Assembly (NCBI GenBank): GCA_964589575.1
Contig: CAZPSE010000005.1
Span: 1,611 to 65,610, forward strand
DNA length: 64,000 bases
DNA from: an uncultured Gammaproteobacteria bacterium
Lineage (GTDB): Bacteria; Pseudomonadota; Gammaproteobacteria; QNFE01; CAZPSE01
Direction of reading: 5' to 3'
The notes beneath the pieces are model-generated. The model saw nothing but the letters and a program-made list of their open reading frames with translations. It was not told the DNA's origin and did no database searches. A program made the position numbers and the translations under genes. The first letter of the stretch is position 1. Each line of letters opens with the position of its first letter. Shown here piece after piece: positions 469-60,008 of this stretch.

Positions 469-667
469 AAGGGATGTTTAGCTAATTTTAAAAAGCGGTA
501 ATTATACCTTAATATGGCGTTATATTTCTATATGAGGATTAGGGGGTATTGCATAAAGTAAATTATTTATTGATTCTAAATGGCAGCTGAACCCAGTCAC
601 CACTTGATGTTAGAAGTATTGGAGGCTACAATAAGTTACAACAATGTTATTACTTTTGGTGGGTGTT

Positions 668-8598: not shown

Positions 8599-8870
8599 AA
8601 ATTGTTGCCAGTTTATTTTATATTGAGCAACTACAAAACATTTTAAGATACATTGCCTTAGATAACCCTTATGCGGCATTGGGTTTTGAAAAAGAACTTA
8701 GCGCAAAGCTTCACCGTGTTAAAGATTCGCCTTTAATGTGTCGCCAATCTATTTACTTTGATAATGGTAATTTTAGAGATTTGATCCATAAGGGTTATAC
8801 CGTTATTTACAAAATAGATAATAGCCAACTTATTTTATTGGACATTTTTAAATGGCAGGGTAGAGCGTAA
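8595..8870 (+). CDS. ParE/RelE-family toxin
   Basis: 91 aa. C-terminal GYTVIYKIDNSQLILLDIFKWQ matches the ParE/RelE core. Translationally coupled to the upstream RHH gene. Confidence 0.7.
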   Translation: MKIVASLFYIEQLQNILRYIALDNPYAALGFEKELSAKLHRVKDSPLMCRQSIYFDNGNFRDLIHKGYTVIYKIDNSQLILLDIFKWQGRA

Positions 8871-32764: not shown

Positions 32765-32927
32765 TTAAGGAATATCTGAACAAGTATCATAAATTCTGGC
32801 AACGCCAAAATTCCAATATCGAGGCATCGTTTTGAAGCCAGGGTTGTTCCCTGTCGAAAAACGATAACGAAGAGATTGGTGTTTTGGCGTTGCCAAACTT
32901 GACGTTAGTTAATCAGGACTTCCTTAA
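32765..32927. repeat. MITE-like repeat, copy C (163 bp, both inverted repeats present)
   Basis: Left end TTAAGGAATATCTGAAC (degenerate). Right end AGTTAATCAGGACTTCCTTAA. Interior is the reverse complement of about 40040..40136 (CTGGCAACGCCAAA...CGTTTTGAAGCC...CCTGTCGAAAAACGA). Confidence 0.6.
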
Positions 32928-33316
32928 CTGTCTCTTTTATTTTTTAAATCCGTTTCAATTTTTTTAGCAGCTTGGGTAGCAAACCGAGAATAAAATATAG
33001 CGCCAATAAACATTAAAATACTAAACACTATTTGTAAATAACCGTAAAGTTTATCGTCAATATTATTGTAGGCAAAATCTACGCCAATGAAAAAATAAAA
33101 TAGGGTTAAAAAACTGCTCCAAGCATAAGTATAAGGTTTACCGTTTAATAAACCACGCAACGGAAATAAAAGCGGTATTAACATTACCGCTAAAATATAG
33201 CTTTTAGGTACATTTACAGCAGGGGAGATGACAGTAAACCAAGTAAGGTTAAGAATAATTAAACCAAAGTAGCCTGTTAAAGCCATGGCTTTATAAAAGT
33301 GGTAATTTTTTAGCAT
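32924..33316 (-). CDS. Small 4-TM membrane protein (DUF2069-like)
   Basis: 130 aa. Hydrophobic segments. It commonly neighbours the ArsC-family gene; its start overlaps the upstream stop. Confidence 0.45.
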   Translation of the reverse strand: MLKNYHFYKAMALTGYFGLIILNLTWFTVISPAVNVPKSYILAVMLIPLLFPLRGLLNGKPYTYAWSSFLTLFYFFIGVDFAYNNIDDKLYGYLQIVFSILMFIGAIFYSRFATQAAKKIETDLKNKRDS

Positions 33317-33657
33317 TATAAAATATCAATCACGTTTTGAATGGGTCGTCCAATAGCCGCTTTACCGTTATGAATAACGATAGGACGTTCTATTAAAATA
33401 GGGTTGTTAATCATAATATTAATAATTTGTTCGTCAGTTAAATTTTCATCGTTTAAGTTATTATCCAAAAAGGCTTGTTCTCCTTTTCGTACTAAATCAA
33501 TGGCTTTTATTTGTAGTAAATTAATTATCTCAAATAAATCGTCTTTACTTGGTGGTGTGTCTAAATAATTAATCACTTCTGGGTATAAATTTTGTTTGCT
33601 TAGTAAATCCATAGTCGCTCGAGATTTAGAGCATTTATTGTTGTGATATATTTTCAA
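33316..33657 (-). CDS. ArsC/Spx-family protein (YffB-like)
   Basis: MKIYHNNKCSKSRATMDLL has the N-terminal catalytic-cysteine context of the ArsC family. 113 aa. Confidence 0.7.
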   Translation of the reverse strand: MKIYHNNKCSKSRATMDLLSKQNLYPEVINYLDTPPSKDDLFEIINLLQIKAIDLVRKGEQAFLDNNLNDENLTDEQIINIMINNPILIERPIVIHNGKAAIGRPIQNVIDIL

Positions 33658-33743
33658 AATAATCGTCCTATTATAGATAAAAATTGTCGTTTTTAGCGAG
33701 TAATAGCTGATACTATCAAGTTATCGAAGAAATTATAAAAATT

Positions 33744-34082
33744 ATGTTATCGATTAATAATGTTTTTCATAAAAATAACTGGGTTTATACTACAAAGTTA
33801 TTCATTCTAGCTTTAGGTTTAAGCGTTGTAGCTTGTGCTTCTGCTCCTTATCAAGAAATGAGCGATGCCAGACAAATGATTGCTTCTGCCACAGAAGAGG
33901 TTTCTGAGGCCGGGCTAAATAACAGTGACTCAATTCAAAATATTATTCGCAAAGCAAAAAACCAATTAGCAAAAGCTAAAGCATTGTTAAATGAAGAAAA
34001 ATATGACGAAGCTAGAGAATTAGCTATAAAAGCATCAAAGTTAGCCCGATTAGCGAAGTCTGAGATAAATATACAAAAATAA
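33744..34082 (+). CDS. Small helical lipoprotein (DUF4398-like)
   Basis: Lipobox (LSVVACAS). Ala/Lys/Glu-rich helical repeats AKNQLAKAKALLNEEKYDEARELAIKASKLARLAKSE. Confidence 0.45.
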   Translation: MLSINNVFHKNNWVYTTKLFILALGLSVVACASAPYQEMSDARQMIASATEEVSEAGLNNSDSIQNIIRKAKNQLAKAKALLNEEKYDEARELAIKASKLARLAKSEINIQK

Positions 34083-34183
34083 AGGGAGTTTTATCATAGA
34101 TTACTTGACGCTTAGTATGGGTAATGATACTTTATGCCCAACACAATCATGAGTTAGAAGAACTAACCTTTTGGAGAAAAACA

Positions 34184-34864
34184 ATGAAATTGAAAGCCTT
34201 AATAAAGCACCTAAGTGCATCAGCAATCGTTTTAGGATTAGCTGTTTCTTGTGCCACGCCAGAAACAGTTGACGGAACTGATTCTATAGCTAAGCTAGGT
34301 AGTAGCTCAGCTGAAAAAATTGCTGCTGAAAGTGCTATAGATAAAGCATCAAGTAAGCTTTCTGCTGCTAAAGGTGACAAAGCCGAATGGAGAGATACAG
34401 GCAAAATGATTAAAGCCGCTAAAAAAGCTTTGGCTGCGGGTGATTATGCTAAAGCAAAAAGCTTAGCAGAAGCGGCGACAGCACAAAGTGAATATGCAAT
34501 ATTTCAAGCAAACATTGAAGAAGGCAAGTTTGAAGCGGCTACCGATTTTGATGCAGCAGTTGCTAAATCAGCAACGTCAAACTCTGGCTGGGTTACCAAC
34601 CATACTGTTGCAACAGGTGACAGCCTTTGGGGTATTTCGGCAACAAGCAATGTTTATGATGATCCATACAAGTGGCCTTTAATTTATAAAGAAAATGCGT
34701 CTAAAATCACTGATCCTGATTTAATTTTCCCAGGTCAAGAACTTGATATTAATCAAAATGCTTTATCAGCAGAAACGGAAGCTGCAATAAGTCATGCACG
34801 TAATCGTGGAGCATGGTCAATTGGTGGTGCTGAACAATCTGATGCAGATTATTTATCTAAGTAA
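34184..34864 (+). CDS. Lipoprotein with an N-terminal helical domain and a C-terminal LysM domain
   Basis: Lipobox LGLAVSC. The C-terminal HTVATGDSLWGISATSNVYDDPYKWPLIYKENASKITDPDLIFPGQELDI is a LysM fold. Start placed at MKLKAL rather than the upstream ATG. Confidence 0.7.
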   Translation: MKLKALIKHLSASAIVLGLAVSCATPETVDGTDSIAKLGSSSAEKIAAESAIDKASSKLSAAKGDKAEWRDTGKMIKAAKKALAAGDYAKAKSLAEAATAQSEYAIFQANIEEGKFEAATDFDAAVAKSATSNSGWVTNHTVATGDSLWGISATSNVYDDPYKWPLIYKENASKITDPDLIFPGQELDINQNALSAETEAAISHARNRGAWSIGGAEQSDADYLSK

Positions 34865-34892
34865 AACGACTTAATCCGTTTTTACTTTATCT

Positions 34893-34932
34893 AAAAGCCA
34901 GCGCCTTTAACAGGTGCTGGCTTTTTTTTTGG
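34893..34932 (+). terminator. Rho-independent terminator after the LysM gene
   Basis: GCCAGCGCC-TTTAACAG-GTGCTGGC followed by T9. Confidence 0.6.
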
Positions 34933-34994
34933 GAAACGATAAGAACTTAATATTCTATTTTGTGTCTTATTAATTTGAATCGAAAATATATTAA

Positions 34995-35456
34995 ATGAAC
35001 GTATTATCAAAACTGTTTCTTGTCAGCACGTCAGTCTTTCCTTCAATTGTTTTAGCTGTTTCTATGCAGTTAACGACTTTAGATGGACAGACGAAAACAT
35101 TAGATGAATATAAAGGTAAGTGGGTGGTGGTTAACTATTGGGCTACATGGTGCCCACCATGTATAGAAGAGATTCCAGAGTTGAATAGTTTTCATGAGAA
35201 GAATGCTGATAGAGCCGTTATGTTAGGCCTCAACCAAGAAGATATTAGCCGTGAGGATTTGAATTCTTTTATTGAGGAATATTTTATGGAATACCCACAA
35301 TTTAAAGTATCACCAAGAGAACGCTCTCCTTTAGGTTCTGTACCTGGCTTACCCACAACATTTGTAATAACACCAAACGGCGAGTTAGTGGCTAAACAGT
35401 CGGGGCCAGTTTCAGAAAAAATGTTAACAGATTTTATTGATAATTGGGGTAAGTAA
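34995..35456 (+). CDS. TlpA/ResA-like periplasmic thiol:disulfide oxidoreductase
   Basis: Signal peptide. WCPPC active site in VVNYWATWCPPCIEEIPEL. 153 aa. Confidence 0.75.
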   Translation: MNVLSKLFLVSTSVFPSIVLAVSMQLTTLDGQTKTLDEYKGKWVVVNYWATWCPPCIEEIPELNSFHEKNADRAVMLGLNQEDISREDLNSFIEEYFMEYPQFKVSPRERSPLGSVPGLPTTFVITPNGELVAKQSGPVSEKMLTDFIDNWGK

Positions 35457-35460
35457 TAAA

Positions 35461-35997
35461 ATGAATAAGAGACGTTTATTAATAGTTGCTTTAGCTTTTG
35501 TAATGGCGATGAGTTTTGCCAATGCAAAAGAAAATAGAGACCCTTATACGTTTTTTTTTGATGAAACATTCGGGGACTTAACCGAAGAAATTGAAAATGC
35601 TAAAGACGCAAATAAAAAAGCTATTTTTATTTTTTTTGAAATGGATGAGTGCCCATTTTGCCATCGGATGAAAACCACAATATTAAATCAAAAGGCGGTA
35701 CAAGATTATTTTAAAGAACATTTTTTAATGCTGCCTATGGATATTGAGGGCGATTTAGAAGTTGTTAATTTTAAAGGAGAAACAAAAACACAAAAGGCAT
35801 TTTCATCAAAAGAAAATAGAGTTAGGGCAACGCCTGTTTTAGCTTTTTTTGATTTAACGGGAAAGCGAATTTTTCGTTATACTGGTGCCACTACCTCACC
35901 TGAAGAGTTTATATGGATGGGGCAATACATAGCAGAAGGGCATTATAAAAAAATGCGCTTTAATAAATATAAAAGAATGAAGAAAAAACAAGGTTAA
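35461..35997 (+). CDS. Secreted thioredoxin-fold protein with a CPFC motif
   Basis: Signal peptide MNKRRLLIVALAFVMAMSFANA. IFIFFEMDECPFCHRMK active site. The ATG lies 5 nt after the TlpA-like stop. Confidence 0.6.
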   Translation: MNKRRLLIVALAFVMAMSFANAKENRDPYTFFFDETFGDLTEEIENAKDANKKAIFIFFEMDECPFCHRMKTTILNQKAVQDYFKEHFLMLPMDIEGDLEVVNFKGETKTQKAFSSKENRVRATPVLAFFDLTGKRIFRYTGATTSPEEFIWMGQYIAEGHYKKMRFNKYKRMKKKQG

Positions 35998-36005
35998 AAT
36001 ACTAA

Positions 36006-37283
36006 ATGAGATTGAAGCGTTTTTTTTTACTGATTGCTTTTTTCTTTTCGTCACTCACTCATTCAGAAGAGTTGCTGTCTTTACAAGATGCGGTAACGAC
36101 AGCATTACAAAATAATTATGCAATAAAAGCTTTAAATTACAACCAGCAAGAGCTAGTCGTTAATCGTCTATTAAGTGAAGACTCCAACAGCTCAAAACTC
36201 AACCTTAAATCTAACTTACAATGGGTTAAACCATCGGCACTTTATACTTTTTCTCAAGACATTAGCGGTTCTGTATCTTTAGTTTATTCTAAAAATCTTT
36301 ATGACTTTGGTCGAACAACGTCTAAGCTAAAAGAGTTTGACCAACAAAAAATATCCATTAAATTAAGCAATAAACTATTAAAACAAAAACAAGTATTAAA
36401 GGTAATAACCGATTTTTTTAATGTACTAATAAGTGATTTAAACTTTAATGTTTGGAATGAAGGGATGTCTATTGCTTTTGTAAGACAAGACAGGGCGGTC
36501 GATAGACTGCAATTAAAAGAAATTACAGAGTTAGACTTATTAGCGCTACAGCGCACTTTTCAATCTGCGTTAATTAAACGAACGGAAGCGGAAAATAAAC
36601 AACGGCTAATGCGCTCTCAATTGTCCAAGTCAATGGGGAGTAATAACTTACCATCAAACCTTGATGACATGGCTAAAGTATTGTGGGAAAAAGAAATACC
36701 TGAGTACGATGACTTAGTGATTGGTGCAATTAAACATAATGGTGAAATAAAGTTATTACTTTCAAATATTAAAGCCAAACAACAACAACGCAAGACAATA
36801 GCAAAACAAACCTCACCTAATTTAACTTTAGAAGCAGATATTAATGCTTATAGCCTAGAAACACCGTTTAGTCACCCAGCGACTGTTACATTACAATTTG
36901 ATTACCCATTGTATTCGGGTTCTGTGCCATCGTTAAAAAGACAACAGATTGATATTGTTTTAGAACGGTTAAAAAACAATTTGTATGCGAAACAACAGCA
37001 AATAAAACATCAATTATTATCGGTATGGCAGCAACTGAATTTATTATCCGTTAAAAAGCAACATTCAGATGTGAATAGTGATTATCAAGATTATTATTTA
37101 GACCGCAGTAGGGCTTTGTACGAGCTGGAAATGCAAAATGACCTAGGTAATGCTATGACAGAGTTTTCAGCAGCTATTTTAGAAAAAGCGACCATTAAAT
37201 ATCAGTGGGTTTTAGCTTGGGAAGAGCTTAGTATAATAACCAACCAACCAAAATATTCGATATTAGGATTACGTTATGAATAA
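36006..37283 (+). CDS. TolC-family outer-membrane efflux protein
   Basis: Signal peptide. SLQDAVTTALQNNYAIKAL matches the OEP N-terminal helix. The two-repeat architecture and 425-aa length are typical of TolC/OprM-type proteins. Confidence 0.75.
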   Translation: MRLKRFFLLIAFFFSSLTHSEELLSLQDAVTTALQNNYAIKALNYNQQELVVNRLLSEDSNSSKLNLKSNLQWVKPSALYTFSQDISGSVSLVYSKNLYDFGRTTSKLKEFDQQKISIKLSNKLLKQKQVLKVITDFFNVLISDLNFNVWNEGMSIAFVRQDRAVDRLQLKEITELDLLALQRTFQSALIKRTEAENKQRLMRSQLSKSMGSNNLPSNLDDMAKVLWEKEIPEYDDLVIGAIKHNGEIKLLLSNIKAKQQQRKTIAKQTSPNLTLEADINAYSLETPFSHPATVTLQFDYPLYSGSVPSLKRQQIDIVLERLKNNLYAKQQQIKHQLLSVWQQLNLLSVKKQHSDVNSDYQDYYLDRSRALYELEMQNDLGNAMTEFSAAILEKATIKYQWVLAWEELSIITNQPKYSILGLRYE

Positions 37284-38013
37284 AAAGTGGTATTTATTTG
37301 TTTTTAGTATTTTAATCTTACTGGTTTCGACAAATGGCTTGACAGAACAAAAAAATACCTTTTTAGAATACAGTGACGTTAGGCAGTTAACGTTTAAATT
37401 TGAAGGATTAATTATTGAAACCTTGGTAAGTAACGGGGAGTTAGTTACTAAAAACCAATCGCTAGCAAAATTAGATAATAAACTGATCAAACTTGAAATA
37501 AAAAAAGCCAAGGCAGAATTAGCATCGACCAATGCGACATATAAAGAAGTACAACAAGAACACGAAAGAGCTTTGGAGTTATTTGACCGAGATATATTGT
37601 CGCAGGTAGATATGGATAAAAGCCATAATTTACTGGATAAAAATGAAGCTTTGTACAATATTAAAGGTGAAAAGCTAAATATTTTAGAAGCCAAACTTAC
37701 TTACTACCAATTAACCGCGCCTTATGATGGTATTGTTTTATTTAATCAATTTCACAATGGTCGATTAATAAAAAACACTATTCAACCACATATAACAATA
37801 AAATTAGCCACACAAAATAAAATACAATTTGTAATTAACAAGAGTAATTTAAATGCAGAAAAAACAATTAACGTAAAAGTGAAAAATAAAAATTATAAAG
37901 CACATCTATTGGGCTTTACTTTTAAAGAGGCTAAATTTCATTATTTGTATCAAATACAAAAACCAAATGCTTATTTATTAGTGGGTAATAAAGTAAAGGT
38001 AATAGGAAAATAA
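37276..38013 (+). CDS. Short HlyD-like periplasmic adaptor (membrane fusion protein)
   Basis: N-terminal TM anchor. A lipoyl half (GLIIETLVSNGELVTKNQSLAKLD), a coiled-coil hairpin, and a second lipoyl half (LTAPYDGIVL). 245 aa. Overlaps the TolC-like gene by 8 nt. Confidence 0.7.
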   Translation: MNKKWYLFVFSILILLVSTNGLTEQKNTFLEYSDVRQLTFKFEGLIIETLVSNGELVTKNQSLAKLDNKLIKLEIKKAKAELASTNATYKEVQQEHERALELFDRDILSQVDMDKSHNLLDKNEALYNIKGEKLNILEAKLTYYQLTAPYDGIVLFNQFHNGRLIKNTIQPHITIKLATQNKIQFVINKSNLNAEKTINVKVKNKNYKAHLLGFTFKEAKFHYLYQIQKPNAYLLVGNKVKVIGK

Positions 38014-38014
38014 T

Positions 38015-39790
38015 ATGACGGTCATAACCTCCCAATATTCTGGCAAATTAAATTTAATAGACGTGTTAGATGATTTACTTGAAGAAAAAATCACCAGTGC
38101 CGACAACGTTAAGTTATTAAAAGCATTACTCGAAGATAAATCCGCTGGTGATTTACAACATCCGTTTATAGAAATAGAAGGCCGTAATTTAGAAAGTAAT
38201 GATGGTGAAGCACTAACTGCAGATTTATTAACTACTTGGCTTGCTTTAAAAAGTGGTTTTGTACAGTTTGATATTGACCCTTTAAAAATTGACTTGCAAG
38301 CTGTTACTTCGGTTATCCCTCAAAATTATGCTAAGCGTTTTAATATTTTAGCGGTAGAAAACAGCAAAAATAAAGTTATTTTTGCCACAGCAGAACCTTT
38401 TGATACATCTTGGGAAACGGAAATTGGCCATGTAATAAATAATAAAAAAATTGAAAAAGTATTGGTAAACCCCGTATTGATAAAGCAATATTTAGAAGAT
38501 TTTTATACGCTTTCTAAGTCCATGGTTGGCGCAGAAGGTAACCATAAAGATACCAATAATTTGCAAAATTTAGAGCAAATGGTAGAAATTGGTAAACGTG
38601 GTAAATCTGATGCGAATGATTCACATGTGGTGGATATTGTTGATTGGTTATTACAATATGCTTTTGAACAGCGCGCATCAGACATTCATATAGAACCTCG
38701 CCGAGAGCAAGGCATTATTCGTTTTAGAATTGATGGTGTGTTACATCAAGTGTACGACATGCCAGCACCGGTTATGAAAGCGGTAACGAGCCGAATTAAG
38801 ATATTAGGACGGATGGACGTTGCAGAAAAAAGGCGACCACAAGACGGGCGATTAAAAACGCGTACAGAAGACGGGTTAGAGGTGGAATTAAGGTTGTCGA
38901 CCATGCCAACAACTTTTGGAGAAAAGCTGGTCATGCGTATTTTTAACCCAGAAACCTTATTGAAAACACTAAATGGTTTGGGTTTTTCTCGTAAAGAAGC
39001 AACGTTGTGGGAAAAAATGACCAATGAGGCACATGGCATTGTTTTATTAACAGGGCCAACAGGGTCGGGTAAAACAACCACCTTGTACTCCACTTTAAAA
39101 CGTTTAGCAAAGCCAGAAATTAACGTTTGCACAGTGGAAGACCCAATAGAATTAGTTGAACCATTATTTAATCAAATGCAGGTTCACCCCAAAATAGACT
39201 TAACCTTTGCGTCGGGTATTCGTACTTTATTACGTCAAGACCCCGATATTATTATGATTGGTGAAATGCGCGATTATGAGACCTCTGAAATGGCCATACA
39301 AGCGGCCTTAACAGGACATTTAGTAATAAGCACCTTGCACACTAATGACGCGCCATCAGCAATTACACGGCTTATAGAGCTGGGTATTGCGCCTTATTTA
39401 ATCAATTCATCCCTAGTTGGTGTGGTAGCACAGCGTTTAATACGCACTTTATGCCCAAGCTGTAAAGAAAAGATACCGTGCGACAAACAACAGTGGGAAA
39501 GTTTAGTTCACCCGTGGAAGTCAAAAGCACCGGAAAATGTATATATTGCAAAAGGCTGTAAAGAATGCCGACAATCTGGCTATAAAGGAAGGATTGGAAT
39601 ATACGAAATAATGGAATTTACCGACGAGATGAAAACCGCCGTACATGAAAATGCTAGTATCATTGATTTGAGAAAAAAAGCCGTCGCAAATGGCTTAAAA
39701 CCATTAAGGCTTTCTGGTGCACAAAAAGTAGCCACAGGTGTAACTACGTTTGAAGAAGTAATGAAAGTTAGCCCACAGCCGAGCAATTAA
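38015..39790 (+). CDS. GspE/PilB-family secretion ATPase (type II/IV secretion NTPase)
   Basis: T2SSE_N-like N-domain. Walker A LLTGPTGSGKTTT, Asp box, Walker B DIIMIGEMRD, His box. Tetracysteine zinc motif CPSC...CKEC. 591 aa. Starts 2 nt after the adaptor gene stop. Confidence 0.9.
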   Translation: MTVITSQYSGKLNLIDVLDDLLEEKITSADNVKLLKALLEDKSAGDLQHPFIEIEGRNLESNDGEALTADLLTTWLALKSGFVQFDIDPLKIDLQAVTSVIPQNYAKRFNILAVENSKNKVIFATAEPFDTSWETEIGHVINNKKIEKVLVNPVLIKQYLEDFYTLSKSMVGAEGNHKDTNNLQNLEQMVEIGKRGKSDANDSHVVDIVDWLLQYAFEQRASDIHIEPRREQGIIRFRIDGVLHQVYDMPAPVMKAVTSRIKILGRMDVAEKRRPQDGRLKTRTEDGLEVELRLSTMPTTFGEKLVMRIFNPETLLKTLNGLGFSRKEATLWEKMTNEAHGIVLLTGPTGSGKTTTLYSTLKRLAKPEINVCTVEDPIELVEPLFNQMQVHPKIDLTFASGIRTLLRQDPDIIMIGEMRDYETSEMAIQAALTGHLVISTLHTNDAPSAITRLIELGIAPYLINSSLVGVVAQRLIRTLCPSCKEKIPCDKQQWESLVHPWKSKAPENVYIAKGCKECRQSGYKGRIGIYEIMEFTDEMKTAVHENASIIDLRKKAVANGLKPLRLSGAQKVATGVTTFEEVMKVSPQPSN

Positions 39791-39802
39791 ACTAATTGAA
39801 AA

Positions 39803-39870
39803 CAAGGGGTTATCCACGCTCCTGCAATTCTGTGTAGTTACATCCCAGTAGGAAACGCTAGAATGGGGTT
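39803..39870. repeat. Divergent REP-like element
   Basis: CAAGGGGTTATCCACGCTCCTGCAATTCTGTGTAGTTACATCCCAGTAGGAAACGC sits directly after the gspE-like stop and is related to the 8944, 15331 and 45825 copies. Confidence 0.45.
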
Positions 39871-39944
39871 TTAATAAAGCTCTGATCAAGCCTCGTAATA
39901 TTCTGCGAGTTTATAAGGGTGCAGATGTTGGGGATGTTCCGAAA

Positions 39945-40154
39945 TTAAGGGCTAAATTAATAATAAGACTATTGGTGAAGTGTGTAACAACAACGTAAGT
40001 GTTAATTTGTAATCTCGTCCTACGGGGCTTAGCGAAAATTGTAGTATCTTCGTTCTCGTTTTTCGACAGGAAATAATCATGGCTTTAAAACGATGCTTCG
40101 ATATTGAAATTTGGCGTTGCCAGAATTTATGATACCTTTTCAGGTTTTACTTAA
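39945..40154. repeat. MITE-like repeat, copy D (mosaic of the A-left and C modules)
   Basis: CTCGTCCTACGGGGCTTAGC matches copy A (CTCGCCCTACGGGGCTTAGC). The 40040..40136 stretch is the reverse complement of copy C. Both terminal inverted repeats are degenerate. Confidence 0.5.
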
Positions 40155-40235
40155 ATAGGAAAAAAGACTAAATTAGTTGTTCTTGTTATCTAAAAGAGGT
40201 TAAAAGCAATGCCTGTTCCTATTGAAACAGGCACT

Positions 40236-40439
40236 TTAAGTGGTGTAAAACGTACTATCGTAAACATTCATTATAGATTCTAACTCGCTAAGCACGCTTG
40301 CATGAAGCGTTTGATCTAATTTACTAATTTCATCAAAAGATTGGGATTGTTTTAATTTTTCAATACATAAATAAACATGTTTGCAGCCTTTTTCACAAAT
40401 TTTGGTCACAATAATGTCGATAGTGAAATCTTTTGTCAT
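40236..40439 (-). CDS. Hypothetical 67-aa Cys-containing protein between two MITE copies
   Basis: MTKDFTIDIIVTKICEKGCKHVYLCIEK... Only ORF in the 1-kb repeat-filled gap. Coding status uncertain. Confidence 0.3.
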   Translation of the reverse strand: MTKDFTIDIIVTKICEKGCKHVYLCIEKLKQSQSFDEISKLDQTLHASVLSELESIMNVYDSTFYTT

Positions 40440-40469
40440 AATTTATCATTTCTTTTCAGATAGGTTATT

Positions 40470-40784
40470 TTAAGGAAGTCCTGATTAACTACATACTATC
40501 TGGCAACGCCCAAGTTTTATCTAGCTATGCCTACAAGGATGTAGGTAGTAGGGCAATGCAGGAGCAATTGCCGAGGCTTGCTTTTGCAGTGCCATCTCGA
40601 TACCACAAAAAAGCATAACGACGCTAGATGAAACTTGGCTAAGCCCCGTAGGGCAATCTTTCAAGCGCGCATCTGCTGCGTTGAGTCCCTTATCAATGGA
40701 ATGACCATTGACTGCGGAACACGCCTTGCATCTGCACGCTTGAAAGAGTGCAGATAATGCGTAGTTAATCAGGATTTCCTTAAT
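40470..40784. repeat. MITE-like repeat, copy B (315 bp, near-perfect 21-bp terminal inverted repeats)
   Basis: TTAAGGAAGTCCTGATTAACT ... AGTTAATCAGGATTTCCTTAA. Interior about 85% identical to copy A. Confidence 0.75.
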
Positions 40785-40876
40785 CAAAATAATAGCCACT
40801 ATCTACCAAAAGAGAGTTATTTTTTTGATTGGATAAAAGAGTAAAATAACCGCATCTATAAATACGAGGCTGATTC

Positions 40877-48621: not shown

Positions 48622-51600
48622 TTAATATTTATCTAGTATTGTTTTTAACGTTTTTTCGGCTTCATCAAAGTCATATTTATCTAAGCATTGTTGCAGGGTT
48701 TCTAATGGTTCTGTTAATTGGTTAGGTACATGCTCAATTAATGACTCTACAGCCTCTACGGCGGTAGAGTCAAAGTTTTCAATTTGTTCTTTTATTGCCA
48801 TTAGGGCTGCTTGTATTGCTTTATCTTCAAAAGTATTTTGTTGTTTGTTATCAGTTTTGTTCTTATTATTTTGTTGGTTTAAAATGTGTAATGCATTATT
48901 AATGGTTTCTATGGCTGTGGTTAAAAGGTTATCTGCGTCATTAATTAATGAATCACTAATTTTGTTAATATCCTGCTCTAAGTTATTTTCTAGTTTTGCT
49001 GCATTTTGCTGCAATTGTGTTGCGCCTATGGTGCCTGCAATGCCTTTTAACGTATGTGCTATTCGGATGGCGGTTTTGGTGTCTTTATTGTTTAAACTGT
49101 CTTTTAACCTAATGATTGCGTCATTTTCTGTCGCTACAAACCGGGCTAATATTTTTAGGTAGAGTTTTTTGCTGCCGCCTAAATTAGCAATAGCTTGCTG
49201 GGTGGTAAAACCTTCAAGTTTTATTGCTTGGCTGTTATCGTCATCTATTTTTAGGGGGGCTTTGGTTGTTTTATTTTGACGGTTACTATCGGTTTTTATC
49301 CATTTTGATATGCAGTTAAACATTTTGTTTGGATCAATGGGTTTGGCTATATGGTCACTCATCCCAGAGTCTAAACATTTCTTCACGTCTTCTATCATGG
49401 CATTTGCAGTCATGGCAATAATGGGTAAGTTTTTAAAGCGTGGGTCTTGTCTTATTTTTTGTGTGGCTTCATAGCCGTCCATTATTGGCATTTGTATGTC
49501 CATTAATACGCAGTCAAAGTGCTGCATACTCACTTGATTAACCGCTTCTAGCCCATTGTTGGCTGTAAAAACGTTAACATTGACTAGTTCTAATAGCTCG
49601 GTTGCCACTTGTTGGTTGATAAGGTTGTCTTCTACCAGCAATATATTGGCACCATTTAAGTTATTAACTTGGCAGTTTAGTGTTTTAGGCTCGTTTGTGT
49701 TTTCTTCTTCTGGTTTGTGGTCCATAACAATCATCGACATGTCAAACAAGGTGGATACCGATACAGGTTTACTTAAAAAGCCGTCTAAATCTTGGCGGGT
49801 TATGTGTTGCAGTAGGTCACTTTTGTCATGGGCGGTAACGATAATAACTTTAGGTATGATAAGTAATTTTTTATTGTTAATAATACGTTGTCTAGTTTCT
49901 ACACCGTCCATTGTAGGCATTTTCCAATCTAAGTATATTACCTGGTAAGGCTGTTGGTTTTTATCAGCCATTTGTATCATTTCTAATGCTTCTTCACCAC
50001 TGGCGGCAAGGTCGGCATTAAATAATAAAGATTGTGCCAGCTGTTGCATAATCTCTCGCGAAATAGGGCTGTCGTCAACAATTAATACTTTTAGGTTTTT
50101 TAAATTGGGTTTTGGAATAATATTGACTAAATCAAAGCCGTTTGAAAGTTCAAATTGAGCCGTAAAATTAAAGGTACTGCCTTTTCCGAAGGTGCTGTTT
50201 GCCCATATTTTACCACCCATCATGTGGGTTAGTTGTTTGCTTATAGACAAACCTAAACCGGTACCGCCGTATTGTCGGGTGGTTGACGAATCTGCTTGGT
50301 TGAAGGACTGAAACAACCTACCGACTTGTTCTTCTGTCATGCCTATGCCGTTATCCGAAACAGAAAATTGCAACGTTGTGTGGTTATTGTCCAGTTTTAT
50401 CAGGCTTATTTTTATTAGTATTTCACCCGTTTCGGTAAATTTAACTGCATTATTGGCTAAATTAATTAGTATTTGCCTTAATCGTAGTGCATCACCAATA
50501 AGCCCATTGGGTACATCTGCGTTTATTTGAATCAATAACTCCAAATCTTTTTCTTTGGTTTTAATGGAAATAATAGGGCATAAATGATCGATAACTTTTT
50601 GCAAACTAAACGGCACTTTTTCCATACTTAACTTGCCTGCTTCAATTTTAGAAAAATCTAAAATATCATTAATTAAACCCAATAATGAATTGGCAGCAAT
50701 GTGTATTTTGTCTACATAGTCTTTTTGTTTGAGCGACAATTCGGTTTGTAACGCTAAATAAGCCATGCCGATAATGGCATTCATTGGGGTGCGTATTTCA
50801 TGGCTCATATTGGCTAAAAAGTCCGATTTTGCTTTATTGGCCTTGTCTGCCTCATCGGCAAATTTATTAACATTGTCATTGGCCTTTTCTAATTTAATGT
50901 TATGTTCTTCAAGCACCTCACTTTTTTGAATGAGTTTTTCTTGGTTTAATTCAAGTGTTTTTGCCATGTTATTAATACGACTATGGGCTTGGTCAAGCCC
51001 TTCAACTTGGTTCGCAATGGTTTTAGATTGATTGGTTAAATAACGCCGCACCATAAAGGTTATTATTAATGTTAATAAAATAGCTATTATTGCCATAATA
51101 TTAGAGTATAGTTTTGCATTCGCAATAATCAATCTGCCCGAGTTGGATTCTTTTTCAATGGTTAGGTGTTCATATTGTCTTAATTCTTCATTTAATAAGT
51201 CAAATTTATCACCTAACTTTGAAAGACCACCGAATAAGATATTGCGTGCGGACAAAATATCGTCTTGCTCTGCAAATTCTACTACTTTGTTTTGAAAAAT
51301 GATGATGTCGGCTATCAAAATGTCTTGTTGCTGAATATTGTTTTTCTCAAAAGCATCTAATGTTGAGTTTTTTAATTCTTGGCGGATTTTACCTACGCGA
51401 TTGCCCCAGATTGTATAATTTTGATAGTATTCATCTCGTAAAAAATAATCATCAGTTAGTACTTGCATTATTAAATAGGTACGGCGCTTGTAAGCGGCAT
51501 TTATAAGATCTTCTGTTAATTGTAATTTATAAAGGCGAGCATCAATTATTTTGTTGTAATGGTTTTCTACATGTTGTAGTTGCCAGTTTGCATGGGCCAC

Positions 51601-51741
51601 TAATATGGCTATAAAAACAATAATGACTAAATAGCCAAACGTCATTTTGGCTATCATTTTTTTTGCGGCGATTGAATACTTGTTACTTAGATTCATACTT
51701 GTTAATTTTAATGTTGGGTAGAATGACTTGTAATAGTGCAA
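48622..51741 (-). CDS. Hybrid sensor histidine kinase (periplasmic sensor-TM-HisKA-HATPase-REC-REC-Hpt)
   Basis: H-box [16 protein letters not shown]-box [12 protein letters not shown]. Two receiver domains ([18 protein letters not shown]). C-terminal Hpt ([13 protein letters not shown]). 1039 aa. Confidence 0.9.
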
Positions 51742-51839
51742 TGTTAAAGAGCTAATAGCAAATTATTAATTAAATGGTTTTGTTGTTGTATCCATAAAAA
51801 ACAGTTGGTAGTATCTATGCATCAAAAAAATATAAAAAA

Positions 51840-52883
51840 TTGGTTATGAGTAACAACAAAAAACACACTATTCTCGTTGTTGATGATATGCCAGAAAACA
51901 TTGAAATATTAAAAAATATACTGGCACCTTTGTATACCGTTAAAGCCGCCATTAATGGAGAGGTTGCCTTAAAAATTGTTAATGCACAACCGCCAGATTT
52001 AATTTTATTAGATATTATGATGCCAGGAATAGATGGCTTTGAAGTATGTAAAAGGCTAAGCAGTAACGCTAAAACAAAAGACATACCGGTGATTTTTATA
52101 ACTGCAAAAAATGAAACGGCTGACGAGCAACACGGTTTTGAAGTTGGCTGTGTAGACTTTTTATCTAAACCGGTGCATTCACTTTTGGTTTTAGCACGGG
52201 TAAAAGCACACTTAGTAGTACAAGCACAAAAACAGTTTTTAAAAAATACCTTTAGCCGTTATCTGTCTGATGACGTTATGGCATCACTGCTAAACTCCAG
52301 TAATGGTTTTGAGTTGGGTGGCAAAAAACAAAAAGTGACTATTTTGATGTCAGACTTACGCGGTTTTACCGCCATTGCAGAGCAGTATGACGCGCAAAAA
52401 GTGATGGAGTTTTTAAATCACTATTTGAAGTCTATGTTTAGTGTTATTAATGATTACAAAGGTACGGTAATAGAGATAATGGGTGATGGATTGTTGGTGT
52501 TATTTGGTGCGCCCATTCAACAAAATAATGATGCCCAGCGTGCAGTGCAATGCGCTATTTTAATGCAAAAAAAAATGCTGCAAGTTAACGAAGTACTAAA
52601 AAAGAACGACTTGCCAGAGCTAGAAATGGGTATTGGTATACATACCTGTAATGTCGTTGTGGGTAATATAGGTTCAGACAAACATGCCAAATACGGCGTA
52701 GTGGGAAGTGGGGTCAACTTAACGGGTAGAATTGAATCTTACACTAAGGGTAATCAAATTTTAATTTCTCCTAGTACTTATGAAGAAAGTAAAACAATAA
52801 TTAAAATTAGCGATGAAATGGATGTTAACCCGAAAGGCTTTGAACATGCCGTTAAATTGCGACAAGTTGCGTCCCTTGCCTAG
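51840..52883 (+). CDS. Response regulator with a class III adenylate/guanylate cyclase output domain
   Basis: REC (ILVVDDMPENIEIL...DIMMPGIDGFE). CHD catalytic domain (ILMSDLRGFTAIAE ... GDGLLVLFGAP ... GIHTCNVVVGNIGS). Confidence 0.8.
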   Translation: MVMSNNKKHTILVVDDMPENIEILKNILAPLYTVKAAINGEVALKIVNAQPPDLILLDIMMPGIDGFEVCKRLSSNAKTKDIPVIFITAKNETADEQHGFEVGCVDFLSKPVHSLLVLARVKAHLVVQAQKQFLKNTFSRYLSDDVMASLLNSSNGFELGGKKQKVTILMSDLRGFTAIAEQYDAQKVMEFLNHYLKSMFSVINDYKGTVIEIMGDGLLVLFGAPIQQNNDAQRAVQCAILMQKKMLQVNEVLKKNDLPELEMGIGIHTCNVVVGNIGSDKHAKYGVVGSGVNLTGRIESYTKGNQILISPSTYEESKTIIKISDEMDVNPKGFEHAVKLRQVASLA

Positions 52884-53102
52884 AAGTACTCTAGCTTGAT
52901 AGATTAATATAAAGCAAGGGGTCGACGAAATAGCCTTTAAAAAGCAATAAATATTTACCCTAATTCTAAGTCTTCGATAGAAAAAAGTTTTCTGATAGAG
53001 TAAAATAACCCCGCTTACAATGAGCAAAATATTTAAGCGGGAGCCTTCTATCAATTGGAACGCTCCCGTTTTTTTGTCTATCATTTATATCTGGAATACA
53101 CG

Positions 53103-54245
53103 TTGACTGCAAAAGCAATTTTGGCATTAGCCGATGGAACCATCTTTAAAGGCATTTCCATTGGTATCGAAGGTGATTCGGTAGGAGAAGTGGTGTTTAA
53201 TACTTCGATGACCGGCTATCAAGAAATCTTAACTGACCCCTCATACAGTAATCAAATGGTCACCCTTACCTATCCGCATGTGGGTAATACAGGCACAACA
53301 CCAATAGATGCCGAATCGTCTAAGGTTCATGTTGCCGGTTTTATTATTAAAGACTTACCTTTTTTAGCCAGTAATTTTCGCAGTGAATTATCACTTGGCG
53401 ACTATTTAAAAACCAACAATATTGTAGCTATATCGAATATAGACACCAGAAAACTTACCCGTATTTTAAGAGAAAAAGGGGCGCAAAGCGGTTGTTTGAT
53501 AACTGGAGACAATATAGACGAAGCCAAAGCAGTGGCTAAAGCCAACGGTTTTGATGGCTTGCAAGGTTTAGACTTAGCAAAAGTTGTAACCACCGATAAA
53601 AGCTACCCGTGGGTTGATAAAACATGGGTGTTAGAAACAGACAGTCATCCAACGTTTAATAAGGCCGATGCACAATACAAAGTAGTGGCTTATGACTTTG
53701 GCGTGAAGTCGAATATATTAAGATTATTAGCAGACAGAAACTGCAACATCACCGTTGTACCTGCAAAAACAACCGCAAAAGATGTATTGGCAATGAACCC
53801 CGATGGTGTGTTTTTATCTAACGGTCCGGGTGATCCTGAGCCGTGTAATTACGCTATCGACGCGGTAAAAACCTTTTTAGATAACGACATACCATTATTT
53901 GGTATTTGTTTAGGCCACCAAATTTTAGCCCTAGCTTGTGGTGCTAAAACAGTAAAAATGAAGTTTGGACACCACGGTGCCAACCACCCAGTACAAGACT
54001 TGGCAACAAAAAAAGTACACATCACCAGCCAAAACCACGGTTTTGCGGTAGATGAGACAACCTTACCAAGTAATGTAAAAGCCACGCATATTTCTTTATT
54101 TGATGGCTCTTTACAAGGCATTAAACGTATAGACAAACCTGCATTTAGTTTTCAAGGTCACCCCGAGGCAAGCCCAGGCCCGCAAGACATTAGTGGCTTG
54201 TTTGACCAATTTATAAACTTAATGGAAGAAGGGAAAGGAGCATAA
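53103..54245 (+). CDS. carA: Carbamoyl-phosphate synthase small (glutaminase) subunit
   Basis: [21 protein letters not shown] and the GATase triad (GICLGHQ). Start assigned to the in-frame TTG at 53103 by alignment with the E. coli CarA N-terminus. The ORF track's upstream ATG at 53055 would add a non-conserved 16-aa leader. Confidence 0.85.
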
Positions 54246-54246
54246 C

Positions 54247-57200
54247 ATGCCAAAAAGAGACGATATTAATAGCATATTAATAATTGGCGCAGGCCCCATT
54301 ATTATTGGTCAAGCGTGCGAGTTTGACTATTCTGGCGCGCAAGCATGTAAAGCATTAAAAGAAGAAGGTTACCGTGTGGTGCTGGTTAACTCTAACCCCG
54401 CCACCATTATGACCGACCCAGAAATGGCCGATGCCACATACATCGAACCAATTACGTGGCAGATGGTTGAAAAAATCATCGAGATTGAAAAACCAGACGC
54501 AATATTACCCACCATGGGTGGTCAAACCGCATTAAATTGCGCTTTAGATTTGGATAGCCAAGGTGTATTGGCCAAACATAACATACAAATGATTGGTGCC
54601 AGTCGCGAAGCGATAGACATGGCAGAAGACCGCGATAAATTTCGTAAAGCGATGACAGAAATTGGCTTAAATACACCTAAAGCCTTTATCGCCCATTCTA
54701 TGGAAGAAGCCAATCAAGGCCAAGCGCAAATAGGCTTTCCTTGTATTATTCGCCCCTCGTTTACAATGGGTGGTAGTGGCGGTGGCATCGCCTACAATAA
54801 AGACGAATTTGTTGAAATTATCACCCGTGGTTTAGATATGTCACCAACCACAGAAGTATTGATTGAAGAATCGGTATAGGCTTGTAAAGAATACGAAATG
54901 GAAGTAGTACGTGATACTGCCGATAACTGCATTATTATTTGTTCTATCGAAAATTTTGACCCGTGTGGCGTACACACCGGAGACTCTATAACGGTAGCAC
55001 CGGCACAAACGCTTACCGATAAAGAATACCAAATTATGCGTAATGCATCGTTAGCTGTACTACGAAAAATAGGCGTAGAAACAGGGGGGTCAAACGTACA
55101 GTTTGCCATTAACCCTAAAAATGGGGCGATGATTATCATCGAGATGAATCCGCGTGTATCGCGCTCATCGGCACTAGCATCTAAAGCGACCGGTTTTCCT
55201 ATTGCTAAAATAGCCGCTAAATTAGCTGTTGGTTATACTTTAGATGAGCTAAGCAATGACATAACCGGTGGCAAAACACCGGCATCGTTTGAGCCATCTA
55301 TAGATTATGTGGTCACTAAAATACCGCGCTTCACGTTTGAAAAATTCCCCAAGGCAGACGATCATTTAACCACGCAAATGAAGTCGGTCGGTGAAGTTAT
55401 GGCCATTGGCCGTACTTTTCAAGAATCATTACAAAAAGCCTTACGTGGTTTAGAAATTGATACAGATGGCCTAAATGAAATGTTGCCACGCGACATAAGT
55501 GACATCGATGCCGAAAATATACTAAGGCAAGAGTTAAGCCTACCAAGGGATAGACGGCTTTGGTATGTAGCGGATGCTTTTAGACGCGGTTACAGCGTTA
55601 AACAAATTTTTGATATTTGCGCCATAGACCCTTGGTTTTTAGCGAACATAGAAAACTTAGTGCAAGAAGAAAAAATCATAGAAGCAATGACGCTACCGGA
55701 GTTAGGTAAAGACCACTTATACCGCTTAAAACAAAAAGGTTTTGCCGACAGCCGTATTGCGCATTGCATAGGCTGTGGCGAAAATGACGTACGTGCCGTT
55801 CGACACGAAATGAATATGCACCCCGTTTATAAACGGGTAGATACTTGCGCGGCAGAATTTGCTACCGATACCGCTTATTTATACTCGACCTACGAAGAAG
55901 AATGCGAAGCCAACCCAACCGATAACGACAAAATAGTTATTTTAGGTGGTGGACCAAACCGAATTGGCCAAGGAATAGAGTTTGACTATTGTTGCGTACA
56001 TGCCGCCATGGCGATGCGCGAAATGGGTCTTGAGACCATAATGGTTAACTGTAACCCAGAAACTGTATCGACCGACTACGATACCTCTGACCGATTGTAT
56101 TTTGAATCGTTAACCTTAGAAGACGTATTAGAAATATTACACAAAGAAAAGCCAAAAGGTGTAATAGTGCAATACGGCGGTCAAACCCCACTAAAATTGG
56201 CAGAAGCATTACAACAAGCGGGCGCACCAATAATAGGAACCTCACCAGATTCGATAGATTTAGCCGAAGATCGTGAACGGTTTCAACAATTAGTCGACAA
56301 AGTAGGGGTAAAACAACCGCCCAACCGTACCGCACGTAATGAAAAAGACGCAGTAACCGCGGCAGAAGAAATTGGTTATCCTTTAGTGGTTCGTCCCTCT
56401 TATGTACTGGGTGGGCGGGCAATGGAAATTGTTCATAACGAAACTGACCTAATGCGCTATATGACCGAAGCGGTATCAGTATCTAACGATTCGCCGGTAT
56501 TGTTAGACCGTTTTTTAGATGACGCGATAGAAGTGGATATAGATGCCGTATGTGACGGTGAACAAGTGGTTATTGGCGCAATTATGGAACACATTGAACA
56601 AGCAGGCGTTCACTCTGGAGACTCTGCCTGTTCACTACCACCGTATACCTTGTCTAACGAAATACAAGACCGTTTGCGTGAGCAAATGAAAAAGCTCGGT
56701 TTAGCATTAAAAGTTAATGGCTTAATGAACGCCCAGTTTGCCGTTAAGGGCGACGATATTTACATTTTAGAAGTGAACCCGCGTGCATCACGCACGGTAC
56801 CGTTTGTATCTAAAGCCATTGGTTACCCAATTGCTAAAATAGCGGCCAAAGTAATGGCGGGGCAAAGCTTACAACAGCAAGGTTTTACCGAAGAACACAT
56901 ACCTAAATTTTACAACGTAAAAGAGGCGGTGTTCCCCTTTGTTAAGTTCCCCGGTGTCGACCCTATTTTAGGCCCAGAGATGAAATCGACCGGTGAAGTA
57001 ATGGCAACCGGCGGCTCTTTTGGCGAAGCCTTTTTTAAAGCATTAATGGCCGGCGGTACAGAATTACCTGCAGGTGGTAAAGCCTTTATAAGTGTGCGCG
57101 ACCAAGATAAAAAGTATGCAGTCAACATTGCTAAAAGCTTAAACGCATTAGGCTTTAAAATGGTGGCAACGGGTGGTACAGCTGTCGTTATCCAAGAAGC

Positions 57201-57459
57201 AGGTTATGCGTGTGAACAAATTAATAAAGTAAAAGAAGGCCGACCACACATTGTAGACTTGATTAAAAACGACGATGTTGATTTAATCATTAATACCACC
57301 GAAGGTTCGGCGGCGATTGCCGACTCTTTCGAGATACGACGTGAATCGTTAAATCATAAAATTCCTTATTCCACCACTATTAACGGCGGTAAGGCTATGT
57401 GTATGGCGATGAGTTACTCGCAAGAGTTAAAACCTTATAAATTACAAGATCTTATATGA
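54247..57459 (+). pseudogene. carB: Carbamoyl-phosphate synthase large subunit interrupted by one in-frame TAG at 54877..54879
   Basis: 54247..54879 and 54898..57459 are in the same frame and together are collinear with E. coli CarB (1073 aa). The local sequence reads [16 protein letters not shown] versus the conserved ES(L/V)(I/L)GWKEYEME. No other disruption is seen. Confidence 0.8.
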
Positions 57460-57484
57460 AATATAAAAGACAAACGGAGTTATT

Positions 57485-57964
57485 ATGAGCCAATTAACCC
57501 CCTTAACTTTAGCGGGTGAAGTAAAATTACGTGCCGAATTAAAGCACTTAAAATATACCGTCAGACCAGAAATTGTCGATGCGATAGCAACAGCACGCGC
57601 GCACGGTGATTTAAAAGAAAATGCAGAATATCATGCAGCAAGAGAGCAACAAAGCTTTAACGAAGGCCGCATTAAATTGGTAGAAGGCACGGTTTCAAAC
57701 TCTCAAATTATTGATGTGTCGCAAACCAATGTAGGCGATAAAATTGTTTTTGGTGCAACTGTCACCCTGTTTGATTTATCAACAGAAGAAGAAGTAACCT
57801 ATCAAATAGTGGGTGATATAGAAGCCGATATTAAACAAAAATTAATTTCGGTAAACTCCCCCATTGCAAGGGCAATGATTGGTAAAAGTACCGATGATGA
57901 ATTTGAGTTTAAAGCACCAAATGGTAAAAAAGAATACGAAGTGGTAGCCGTCGTATATAAATAA
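57485..57964 (+). CDS. greA: Transcription elongation factor GreA
   Basis: [16 protein letters not shown] and a C-terminal FKBP-like domain ([14 protein letters not shown]). 159 aa. Confidence 0.95.
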
Positions 57965-57992
57965 TCATTTTTAAATGAAAATAGGGGGCTAA

Positions 57993-58847
57993 ATGGACAA
58001 CAAAAAAGGCACGCTTTATATTGTCGCCACCCCAATTGGTAATTTAGGCGACATGACACACCGCGCTATTGGCGTGTTAAACGCGGTAGATTTAATCGCC
58101 GCAGAAGACACCCGCACCAGCGGTAAGTTGTTGCAACATTTTGATATTAAAACACAATGCATTGCCTACCACGAACATAATGAAAGAAGCAGCAGTGGCA
58201 AGCTAATAGCGTTATTGGCACAAGGCAAAAATATTGCTTTAATTTCTGACGCTGGCACGCCATTAATTAGCGACCCCGGTTACATTTTAGTCGCCCAAGC
58301 CCATCAAGAAAGCATTAAAGTAGAGCCAGTTCCTGGTTCATCGGCGGTTATGGCCGCATTATCAACGGCGGGTTTAGCCACCGATCGGTTTTTATATATT
58401 GGCTTTTTACCCTCTAAAAAATCGGCCAGAGATAAAACCCTAAAAGACTTGCAAGGGGTCGACGCTACGATGGTTTTTTATGAGTCTTGCCATCGTATTG
58501 AAGATTCTATAAAAAGTTTTATTGATGTTTTTGGCGAACAAAGACGTGTTTGTTTTGCCAGAGAAATTACCAAACAGTTTGAAACAATCAAACAGACAGA
58601 TTTTAAAAACCTGCTAGACTTTGTTGCTAATGACGACAACCAAAAACGCGGAGAAATTGTTTTAGTAGTCGAAGGCAAAGTAAAAGTAAAAGATGAAATA
58701 AATTATCAAAATTTAGATAATCTTTTAAAACCATTACTGCAATATCTGCCACCAACATCGGCGGCTAAAGTGGCTAGCCAGTATTTGCAGTTAAAAAAGA
58801 AAGTGTGTTATCAACGCGCAATAGAGCTGTCTCAAAACTCAATTTAA
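57993..58847 (+). CDS. rsmI: 16S rRNA (cytidine1402-2'-O)-methyltransferase
   Basis: LYIVATPIGNLGDMTHRAIGVLNAVDLIAAEDTR matches the E. coli RsmI N-terminus. 284 aa. Confidence 0.9.
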   Translation: MDNKKGTLYIVATPIGNLGDMTHRAIGVLNAVDLIAAEDTRTSGKLLQHFDIKTQCIAYHEHNERSSSGKLIALLAQGKNIALISDAGTPLISDPGYILVAQAHQESIKVEPVPGSSAVMAALSTAGLATDRFLYIGFLPSKKSARDKTLKDLQGVDATMVFYESCHRIEDSIKSFIDVFGEQRRVCFAREITKQFETIKQTDFKNLLDFVANDDNQKRGEIVLVVEGKVKVKDEINYQNLDNLLKPLLQYLPPTSAAKVASQYLQLKKKVCYQRAIELSQNSI

Positions 58848-58860
58848 ACGAATCTAGGAA

Positions 58861-59811
58861 ATGTATATGAACAAATTTTTAATTATTGCACTGCTTCTTA
58901 GTAGTTCTTGGCAGGTATTTTCTCACTCAAAAATAGTAGAGGCTTACCCCGTTAGCGAAATTACTCCCCGTGTATTTGTTCTTCATGGGCCAAAAGGCTT
59001 ACCGAGTGTGGCTAATAAAGGTTTTATGAATAATCCTGCTTTTATTATCGGTGATAAAGGTGTGATAGTTGTTGACCCAGGTTCTAGCGTTTATATAGGC
59101 CGTATGTTAATTAAAGCCATACAAAAAAGAAGCAACTTACCTGTTACCCATATATTTAACACCCATGTGCATGGCGACCATTGGTTAGCAAACCACGCTT
59201 TTGTAGATAAATGGCCCGGTGTTACCATTTATGGTCATCCAAATAAAATTGCTATGGCACATGACGGAGAGGCAGAATCATGGCTTGCCACAATGGACAC
59301 CCTAACTGAAGGTTTAACAAAAGGCACCAAAGCATACCCTGCCAACAGCAAAAGTAATGATGGTGATGTGTACAAAATACACGGCTTAACTTTTAAAATA
59401 CATGCGCCAGACAATGCACATTCTAAAACCGACATTATGGTGGAGTTGGTAGAAGACTCGGTGGTATTTTTAGGCGACAACGTTTTTTATCAACGCATTG
59501 GTCGGTTAGACGATGGAACATTTAAAGGCAATATTGAGGCGTGTAATGTGGCACTAGCAATTAACGCCACACATTATGTACCGGGTCATGGCCCTACAGG
59601 TGGCAGTATTGTGGTTGAGTCGTATAAACGCTTTTTAGAAACCATTTTTAACTTAACGGCTAAGCATTATGAAGACGATAAAGAAGATTATGAAATTAAA
59701 CCCCTAATAGACAAGCAACTAACCGAGTTTAAAAACTGGGACGGTTACGACGGTGCATTGGGCAAAATGATCAGCTTGGCTATTTTAGAAATTGATGCGA
59801 GTGAAGAGTAA
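58861..59811 (+). CDS. Secreted metallo-beta-lactamase-fold hydrolase
   Basis: Signal peptide. HVHGDHW (HxHxDH) motif with downstream His/Asp ligands. 316 aa. Confidence 0.75.
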   Translation: MYMNKFLIIALLLSSSWQVFSHSKIVEAYPVSEITPRVFVLHGPKGLPSVANKGFMNNPAFIIGDKGVIVVDPGSSVYIGRMLIKAIQKRSNLPVTHIFNTHVHGDHWLANHAFVDKWPGVTIYGHPNKIAMAHDGEAESWLATMDTLTEGLTKGTKAYPANSKSNDGDVYKIHGLTFKIHAPDNAHSKTDIMVELVEDSVVFLGDNVFYQRIGRLDDGTFKGNIEACNVALAINATHYVPGHGPTGGSIVVESYKRFLETIFNLTAKHYEDDKEDYEIKPLIDKQLTEFKNWDGYDGALGKMISLAILEIDASEE

Positions 59812-59814
59812 AGG

Positions 59815-60008
59815 GTTAATCAGGACTTCCTTGAGGAAGAACTGATTAACTGGGTTAGAATTGCGCTGAGAAAAAAGTGTCGCTATTTTTCGCGAAGTGA
59901 GTCGTAATAGTCGCTCTATTGCAACGAACTTCGGGGAAAATAGCGACACTTTTAGCCAGTGCAAAATAAGCTCAGTTGATCAGTTCTTCCTCAAGGAAAC
60001 CCTGAACT
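59815..60008. repeat. MITE-like repeat, copy E (palindromic ends CCTTGAGGAAGAACTGAT(T/C)AAC)
   Basis: Left end GTTAATCAGGACTTCCTTGAGGAAGAACTGATTAAC forms a nested hairpin. Right end GTTGATCAGTTCTTCCTCAAGGAAACCCTGAAC. The right end supplies the last codons and stop of glcF. Confidence 0.65.

Follow-up and report, generated by a model that had tools for sequence, protein, structure and literature searches.

In Aquifex aeolicus and Methanocaldococcus jannaschii, the halves of carB are encoded as separate genes, with the splits located between the homologous halves and each ATP-grasp fold left complete. Clustered multi-nucleotide mutations represent a known minor class of spontaneous mutation. 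A third type of system is purely technical: local assembly errors in metagenome-assembled genomes (MAGs), which are flagged by the absence of perfect read support and carry wrong protein-coding sequences into databases (Chen et al. 2020, Genome Res, PMC7111523). Here, we characterize a carB gene interrupted by an in-frame stop codon in a 64,000-nucleotide stretch of DNA, the whole of which was analyzed and is referred to as the window. The initial annotation of this locus had offered an incipient pseudogene, a localized sequencing or assembly error and stop-codon readthrough as possible explanations, with no preference given to any of them. Of these, a localized error is favored by our analysis, given an independent assembly that carries an intact gene and is otherwise identical.

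Results

The carB gene of the window is located at 54247..57459 on the forward strand, and one-frame translation yields 1070 codons with a single internal stop, TAG at 54877..54879. The sequence at 54865..54903 is gaa gaa tcg gta TAG gct tgt aaa gaa tac gaa atg gaa. The stop lies in the frame of the ORF starting at 54247 and no frameshift is found in carB; the direct reading of the window and its translation agree that this frame is common to both halves, as had been claimed initially. The N-terminal fragment (54247..54879, forward strand) consists of codons 1-210 followed by the in-frame TAG and forms a 210-aa ORF, and the remainder (54880..57459, forward strand) continues in the same frame through codons 212-1070. 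The first ATG past the stop is found at 54898, 18 nt downstream, and opens an ORF of 853 aa (54898..57459). Comparison with the CarB equivalog model NF003671 placed the 210-aa ORF at model positions 1-210 of 1058 (E=1.5e-111) and the 853-aa ORF at positions 218-1050 of 1058 (1347.6 bits). The gene thus matches the CarB family (NF003671 / TIGR01369) over its full length and with both ATP-grasp halves, albeit as two fragments, and the window CarB is 90% identical to P0001 over the full length.

The interruption belongs to a 9-nt patch at 54877..54885 (forward strand), where TAG GCT TGT (stop-Ala-Cys) stands in place of the normal TTG GGT TGG (Leu-Gly-Trp). The changes comprise substitutions at 54878, 54881 and 54885, as determined by comparison with the independently assembled contig L100 described below, and do not involve any indel; the description of three changes within 9 nt, and that of the patch as a whole, proved accurate in every detail. 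Alignment with E. coli CarB (1BXR and others) equates the stop with I211, the alanine with G212 and the cysteine with W213. The nucleotide is bound in the first ATP-grasp fold of the E. coli enzyme by E208/L210 on one side of the I211 site and by E215 on the other.

The replacement of a conserved Gly-Trp motif by Ala-Cys was borne out by a set of 119 homologs (73-90% identity), all 119 of which contain GW, preceded by leucine in 108 and by isoleucine in 6 cases. As nearest relatives, we used L001, an ENA metagenome contig whose CarB is 90% identical to that of the window, and L002 (GCA_054032215.1, CarB 87% identical). At the site, L001 contains GTA CTG GGT TGG and L002 contains GTA CTT GGC TGG, so that the reading of the two closest relatives is ESVLGWKEYEME. 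Between the window and L001, dN/dS was 0.029 for the part of carB before the stop and 0.050 for the part after it, calculated at a dS of about 1.5 where synonymous sites are near saturation. When L002 was used as the outgroup for counting lineage changes, 38 private amino-acid changes were assigned to the window lineage and 38 to the L001 lineage. Further, the window departs from only 2 of the 431 columns that are invariant among the 119 homologs, namely residues 212 and 213. The low dN/dS, the equal branches and the small number of changed invariant columns indicate that strong purifying selection has acted on carB until the present. A decaying pseudogene would be expected to show raised dN/dS or an accelerated branch, together with further lesions or the loss of partners and neighbors; none of these was observed for carB, and the damage is confined wholly to the one 9-nt patch.

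The window is densely coding with a G+C content of 37.5%. Directly upstream of carB, an intact carA encodes the carbamoyl-phosphate synthase small subunit (53103..54245, forward strand; TIGR01368 positions 1-360 of 361, E=1.6e-144), likely starting at TTG 53103, with the mechanically called ORF beginning at 53055. The pyrD gene, encoding dihydroorotate dehydrogenase, a pyrimidine-pathway enzyme acting downstream of carbamoyl phosphate, is likewise intact (17676..18680, reverse strand; PF01180 positions 5-285 of 291, E=1.5e-78). When compared with Pfam and NCBIfam models, carA, pyrD, greA, rsmI and the glcDEF cluster proved full length, as did each other gene of the 64 kb that was checked; this argues against general decay and against a general indel-type error. 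Other candidates for split genes in the window were considered and rejected, the short ORF pairs representing MazEF, ParDE-like toxin-antitoxin systems, two thioredoxin-fold genes and similar arrangements.

A number of additional features were recorded in the window. Type II toxin-antitoxin pairs are located at 644..1212 and 8302..8870 and consist of a MazE/MazF-like pair (PF04014, PF02452) and a DUF6290 antitoxin with a ParE-family toxin. Just upstream of carAB lies a divergent gene pair made up of a 1039-aa hybrid sensor histidine kinase of the BarA/TorS-like type (48622..51741, reverse strand) and a response-regulator receiver fused to a class III nucleotidyl cyclase domain (51846..52883, forward strand; PF00072, PF00211). 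The greA and rsmI genes are adjacent and 28 nt apart in the window (57964..57993); in L001, a MotY-like OmpA-family gene is found between them on the opposite strand (5887..6807). ORFs of 425 and 245 aa, which overlap and have no Pfam match (36006..38013), directly precede an MshE-type T2SSE ATPase (38015..39790) and may encode uncharacterised pilus or secretion components. The following stretch of about 1.1 kb (39791..40876) is the least gene-like of the window, with a 445-nt gap before two short ORFs (67 and 92 aa, reverse strand) that lack a Pfam match. Neither tRNA genes nor Rfam families (at the gathering threshold) were detected in these 64 kb of otherwise dense housekeeping genes.

The broken gene is also visible in the public record. 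The public protein collection contains P0003 (853 aa, NCBI source, 67,220-nt contig), which matches the ORF beginning at ATG 54898 with 100% identity. As P0003 would not be called from an intact carB, the stop must be present in the deposit, and the presence of this protein in the collection places the discrepancy between the deposited contig and another assembly and excludes an origin in the cutting of the window. The exact 210-aa and 853-aa products were found in none of the indexed assemblies, a result that says little as the index does not include the source contig. Exact-product look-ups of CarA and ProA returned no match, and a scan of genome contigs yielded relatives at 67-73% identity only.

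Logan provides an independent assembly of the public run SRR9822617, a run that might also be among the source reads of the deposit. An exact-product look-up of the window GreA identified L100 (SRR9822617_29860, 5,004 nt, present in 2 samples), which corresponds to window 54860..59863 and matches it at 5,001 of 5,004 bases. The three mismatches are located at 54878 (A in the window, T in L100), 54881 (C vs G) and 54885 (T vs G) and are all transversions. At the patch, L100 reads TTG GGT TGG (Leu-Gly-Trp), which leaves the frame open and gives IEESVLGWKEYEME; an uninterrupted frame with the invariant ES-x-(L/I)-G-W-KEYE motif is therefore present in L100 and absent from the window. A second contig of the same run (L101) is identical to window 50645..54645 at all 4,001 nt, carA included, and another is identical to 32898..39927 (7,030/7,030 nt). 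In total, 16,032 of 16,035 bases match between the three Logan contigs and the window, the patch bases being the sole mismatches. This identity everywhere outside the patch identifies the window and the SRR9822617 contigs as the same clone, and with only 3 mismatches in 16,035 bases the three changes do not represent chance clustering. The independent assembly thus disagrees with the deposited contig at the patch only, as an assembly error in a MAG would lead one to expect. Raw reads with TTG/TTA-GGx-TGG had initially been named as the observation that would overturn the finding of a broken gene, and this sequence has effectively been seen, in the Logan contig L100 and not in reads. A compensated frameshift (-1 followed by +1) was also considered and rejected, since ungapped comparison with L100 gives three substitutions at unchanged length. 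A full-text literature search for SRR9822617 produced no match. As a separate observation, 214 nt of carB (54646..54859) are unassembled in SRR9822617, L101 ending at 54645 and L100 starting at 54860, which suggests low depth or graph branching over the conserved ATP-grasp segment.

The patch is embedded in a very conserved stretch (54857..54905, forward strand) whose repaired form shares exact runs of 46-49 nt with distant metagenomic carB genes. Metagenomes were scanned for the 15 nt and 20 nt flanking the patch, which had to match exactly, with any sequence allowed at the 9 nt between them. This flank scan returned 17 JGI contigs from distant taxa, all of which encode LGW (17/17), six of them with exactly TTGGGTTGG. 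Overall identity to the window carB amounts to only about 70-73%. Having been picked by flank match, the 17 contigs show that such sharing exists and do not indicate how common it is. L100 itself starts inside the shared stretch, at 54860. The mutant 9-mer is not the allele of any other species seen, and a simple cross-species chimera therefore fails as an explanation.

The possibility that a nearby donor supplied the patch, by templated mutation or by gene conversion, was likewise considered and rejected. No second copy of the patch 16-mer exists in the window, and 8-mers covering all three derived bases are found nearby on neither strand. One 8-mer, ATAGGCTT, occurs both at 54730 and at 54876, i.e. 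146 nt upstream and in the patch, a repeat expected by chance in roughly 10% of cases (an estimate that accounts for multiple testing) and therefore regarded as coincidental. In addition, the mutant 11-mer ATAGGCTTGTA (54876..54886) equals the upstream sequence ATAGGCTTTCCTTGTA (54730..54745) minus 5 nt. Such a likeness might point to templating or mis-joining as the source of the patch, but it is within the range of chance.

Discussion

Two of the conceivable readings would leave the organism with a functional enzyme encoded by the sequence as deposited. Decoding of the TAG through programmed readthrough, a suppressor tRNA or pyrrolysine-type recoding would yield full-length CarB, in line with both carB halves lying in one frame and being otherwise well conserved. 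Within the window, however, TAG acts as an ordinary stop that ends 9 other long ORFs at points where the family models also end, no tRNA or Rfam element accompanies it, and the RNA downstream is unstructured (z = +0.38 vs shuffled controls). A sense codon occupies the site in the 119 homologs, L001, L002, the 17 metagenome contigs and L100, and the same clone has TTG in its other assembly. Decoding would also leave Ala-Cys unrepaired at the invariant Gly-Trp. With neither a stop conserved in relatives nor, among the signals sought within the window, downstream structure or a reassigned TAG, the readthrough option raised in the initial annotation is highly improbable. Alternatively, CarB might naturally consist of two polypeptides of 210 and 853 aa that together form an active enzyme, the ATG at 54898 being located only 18 nt past the stop. 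This arrangement would place the break at residue 211, inside the first ATP-grasp fold and not at the junction of the homologous halves, at the cost of residues 211-217 and with G212/W213 replaced. The closest relatives are unsplit, and no convincing ribosome-binding site or Shine-Dalgarno sequence precedes 54898 (aaagaatacgaaATG), so that the pair shows neither a break between homologous halves nor a start signal for each ORF. We assign practically no probability to a natural split, which is refuted in practice by the intact allele of the same clone.

The other two readings place the patch in a genome or in a contig only. Under the first, a null carB allele could have arisen very recently in the population or sub-population behind the contig through a single multi-nucleotide event, for example when a damaged patch was copied by error-prone synthesis. 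The stop stands in the deposited record, a cluster of three changes spanning 8 nt in 16 kb of otherwise identical sequence is in line with one event rather than three independent ones, and a carB free of other decay agrees with a very recent origin. Yet the independent assembly of the same clone, seen in two samples, has the intact allele, and for a null allele of an essential gene to end up as the consensus, it would have had to prevail against selection, with carA and pyrD still intact. A templated version of the event is further disfavored by the lack of a nearby ungapped donor sequence. Moreover, the site coincides with a trouble spot of the assembly graph, which is expected of an artifact and would be coincidence for a mutation. 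An event of this kind is in our view unlikely. The incipient pseudogene proposed initially finds no sign of decay in dN/dS, branches or pathway partners and survives as a very recent event only; it is doubtful that the contig records a real haplotype, in which case a fresh carB knockout, auxotrophic for arginine and pyrimidines and dependent on cross-feeding, would exist in a natural gammaproteobacterial population beside the intact allele of SRR9822617. We consider it likely instead that the patch, including the stop and Ala-Cys, entered the deposited metagenome-derived contig through a local error of assembly or consensus calling and that the carB gene of the organism is intact. Such an error does require erroneous reads or an assembler artifact, the mutant 9-mer being the allele of no other species seen. 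Another point against it is that Logan contigs are bubble-popped, and a minority TAG allele in SRR9822617 may thus be hidden.

A local error at this position could arise as follows. In a community assembly graph, the exact 46-49-mers shared between species at 54857..54905 would create a branching, thinly resolved point. An error-rich read end bridging the thin spot, a mis-resolved bubble or a step of the assembler or polisher might then fix the patch into the contig. The Logan k-mer assembly also breaks near the site, as L100 begins at 54860 and L101 ends at 54645. From the comparison of assemblies, we infer that read support for TAGGCTTGT is absent.

The biological readings of the broken carB are mostly unsupported, and the break is most likely not a feature of the organism. 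The term "split carB" used initially is true of the deposited sequence and probably not of the organism. An annotation that trusts the contig would miss CarB in this genome and wrongly predict a need for external arginine and pyrimidines. Truncated CarB fragments also enter protein databases, as has already occurred with P0003 (853 aa). More generally, the case shows that calls of this kind can be settled by assembling public reads independently, without the original read pileup, and that highly conserved gene segments common to several species are places where a metagenome consensus should be distrusted. Should the allele nevertheless be real, it would constitute an ordinary recent null mutation whose carriers need external arginine and a pyrimidine.

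Comparison with known systems

With the naturally split carB genes of Aquifex aeolicus and Methanocaldococcus jannaschii, the locus described here shares the presence of CarB as two ORFs. Their division, however, lies between the synthetase halves, whereas the break in the window is located within the first ATP-grasp fold, at residue 211. Recent nonsense pseudogenes, for example those of host-restricted or cross-feeding bacteria, resemble this carB in having one in-frame stop in an otherwise intact biosynthetic gene. In contrast to them, dN/dS is not raised here, there are no extra lesions, carA and pyrD are undecayed, no other broken gene is found in the 64 kb, and the other assembly of the same clone is intact. 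Multi-nucleotide mutation events offer a parallel in the three substitutions within 8 nt, which cannot be independent; in the present case, however, the changes are known from an assembly and a templating donor was not found.

A further comparison is offered by the local assembly errors of MAGs described by Chen, Anantharaman, Shaiber, Eren and Banfield (2020, PMC7111523). Many of the described errors are gaps, repeats or indels, whereas three substitutions at unchanged length are found here. Their defining test is the absence of any perfectly supporting read, and the case presented here rests on a comparison of assembly with assembly. What is shared is a short bad consensus that corrupts a gene within an otherwise accurate contig, disagreement with an independent assembly at that place only, an assembly graph that is non-unique at the site and the spread of the resulting sequence to public databases.
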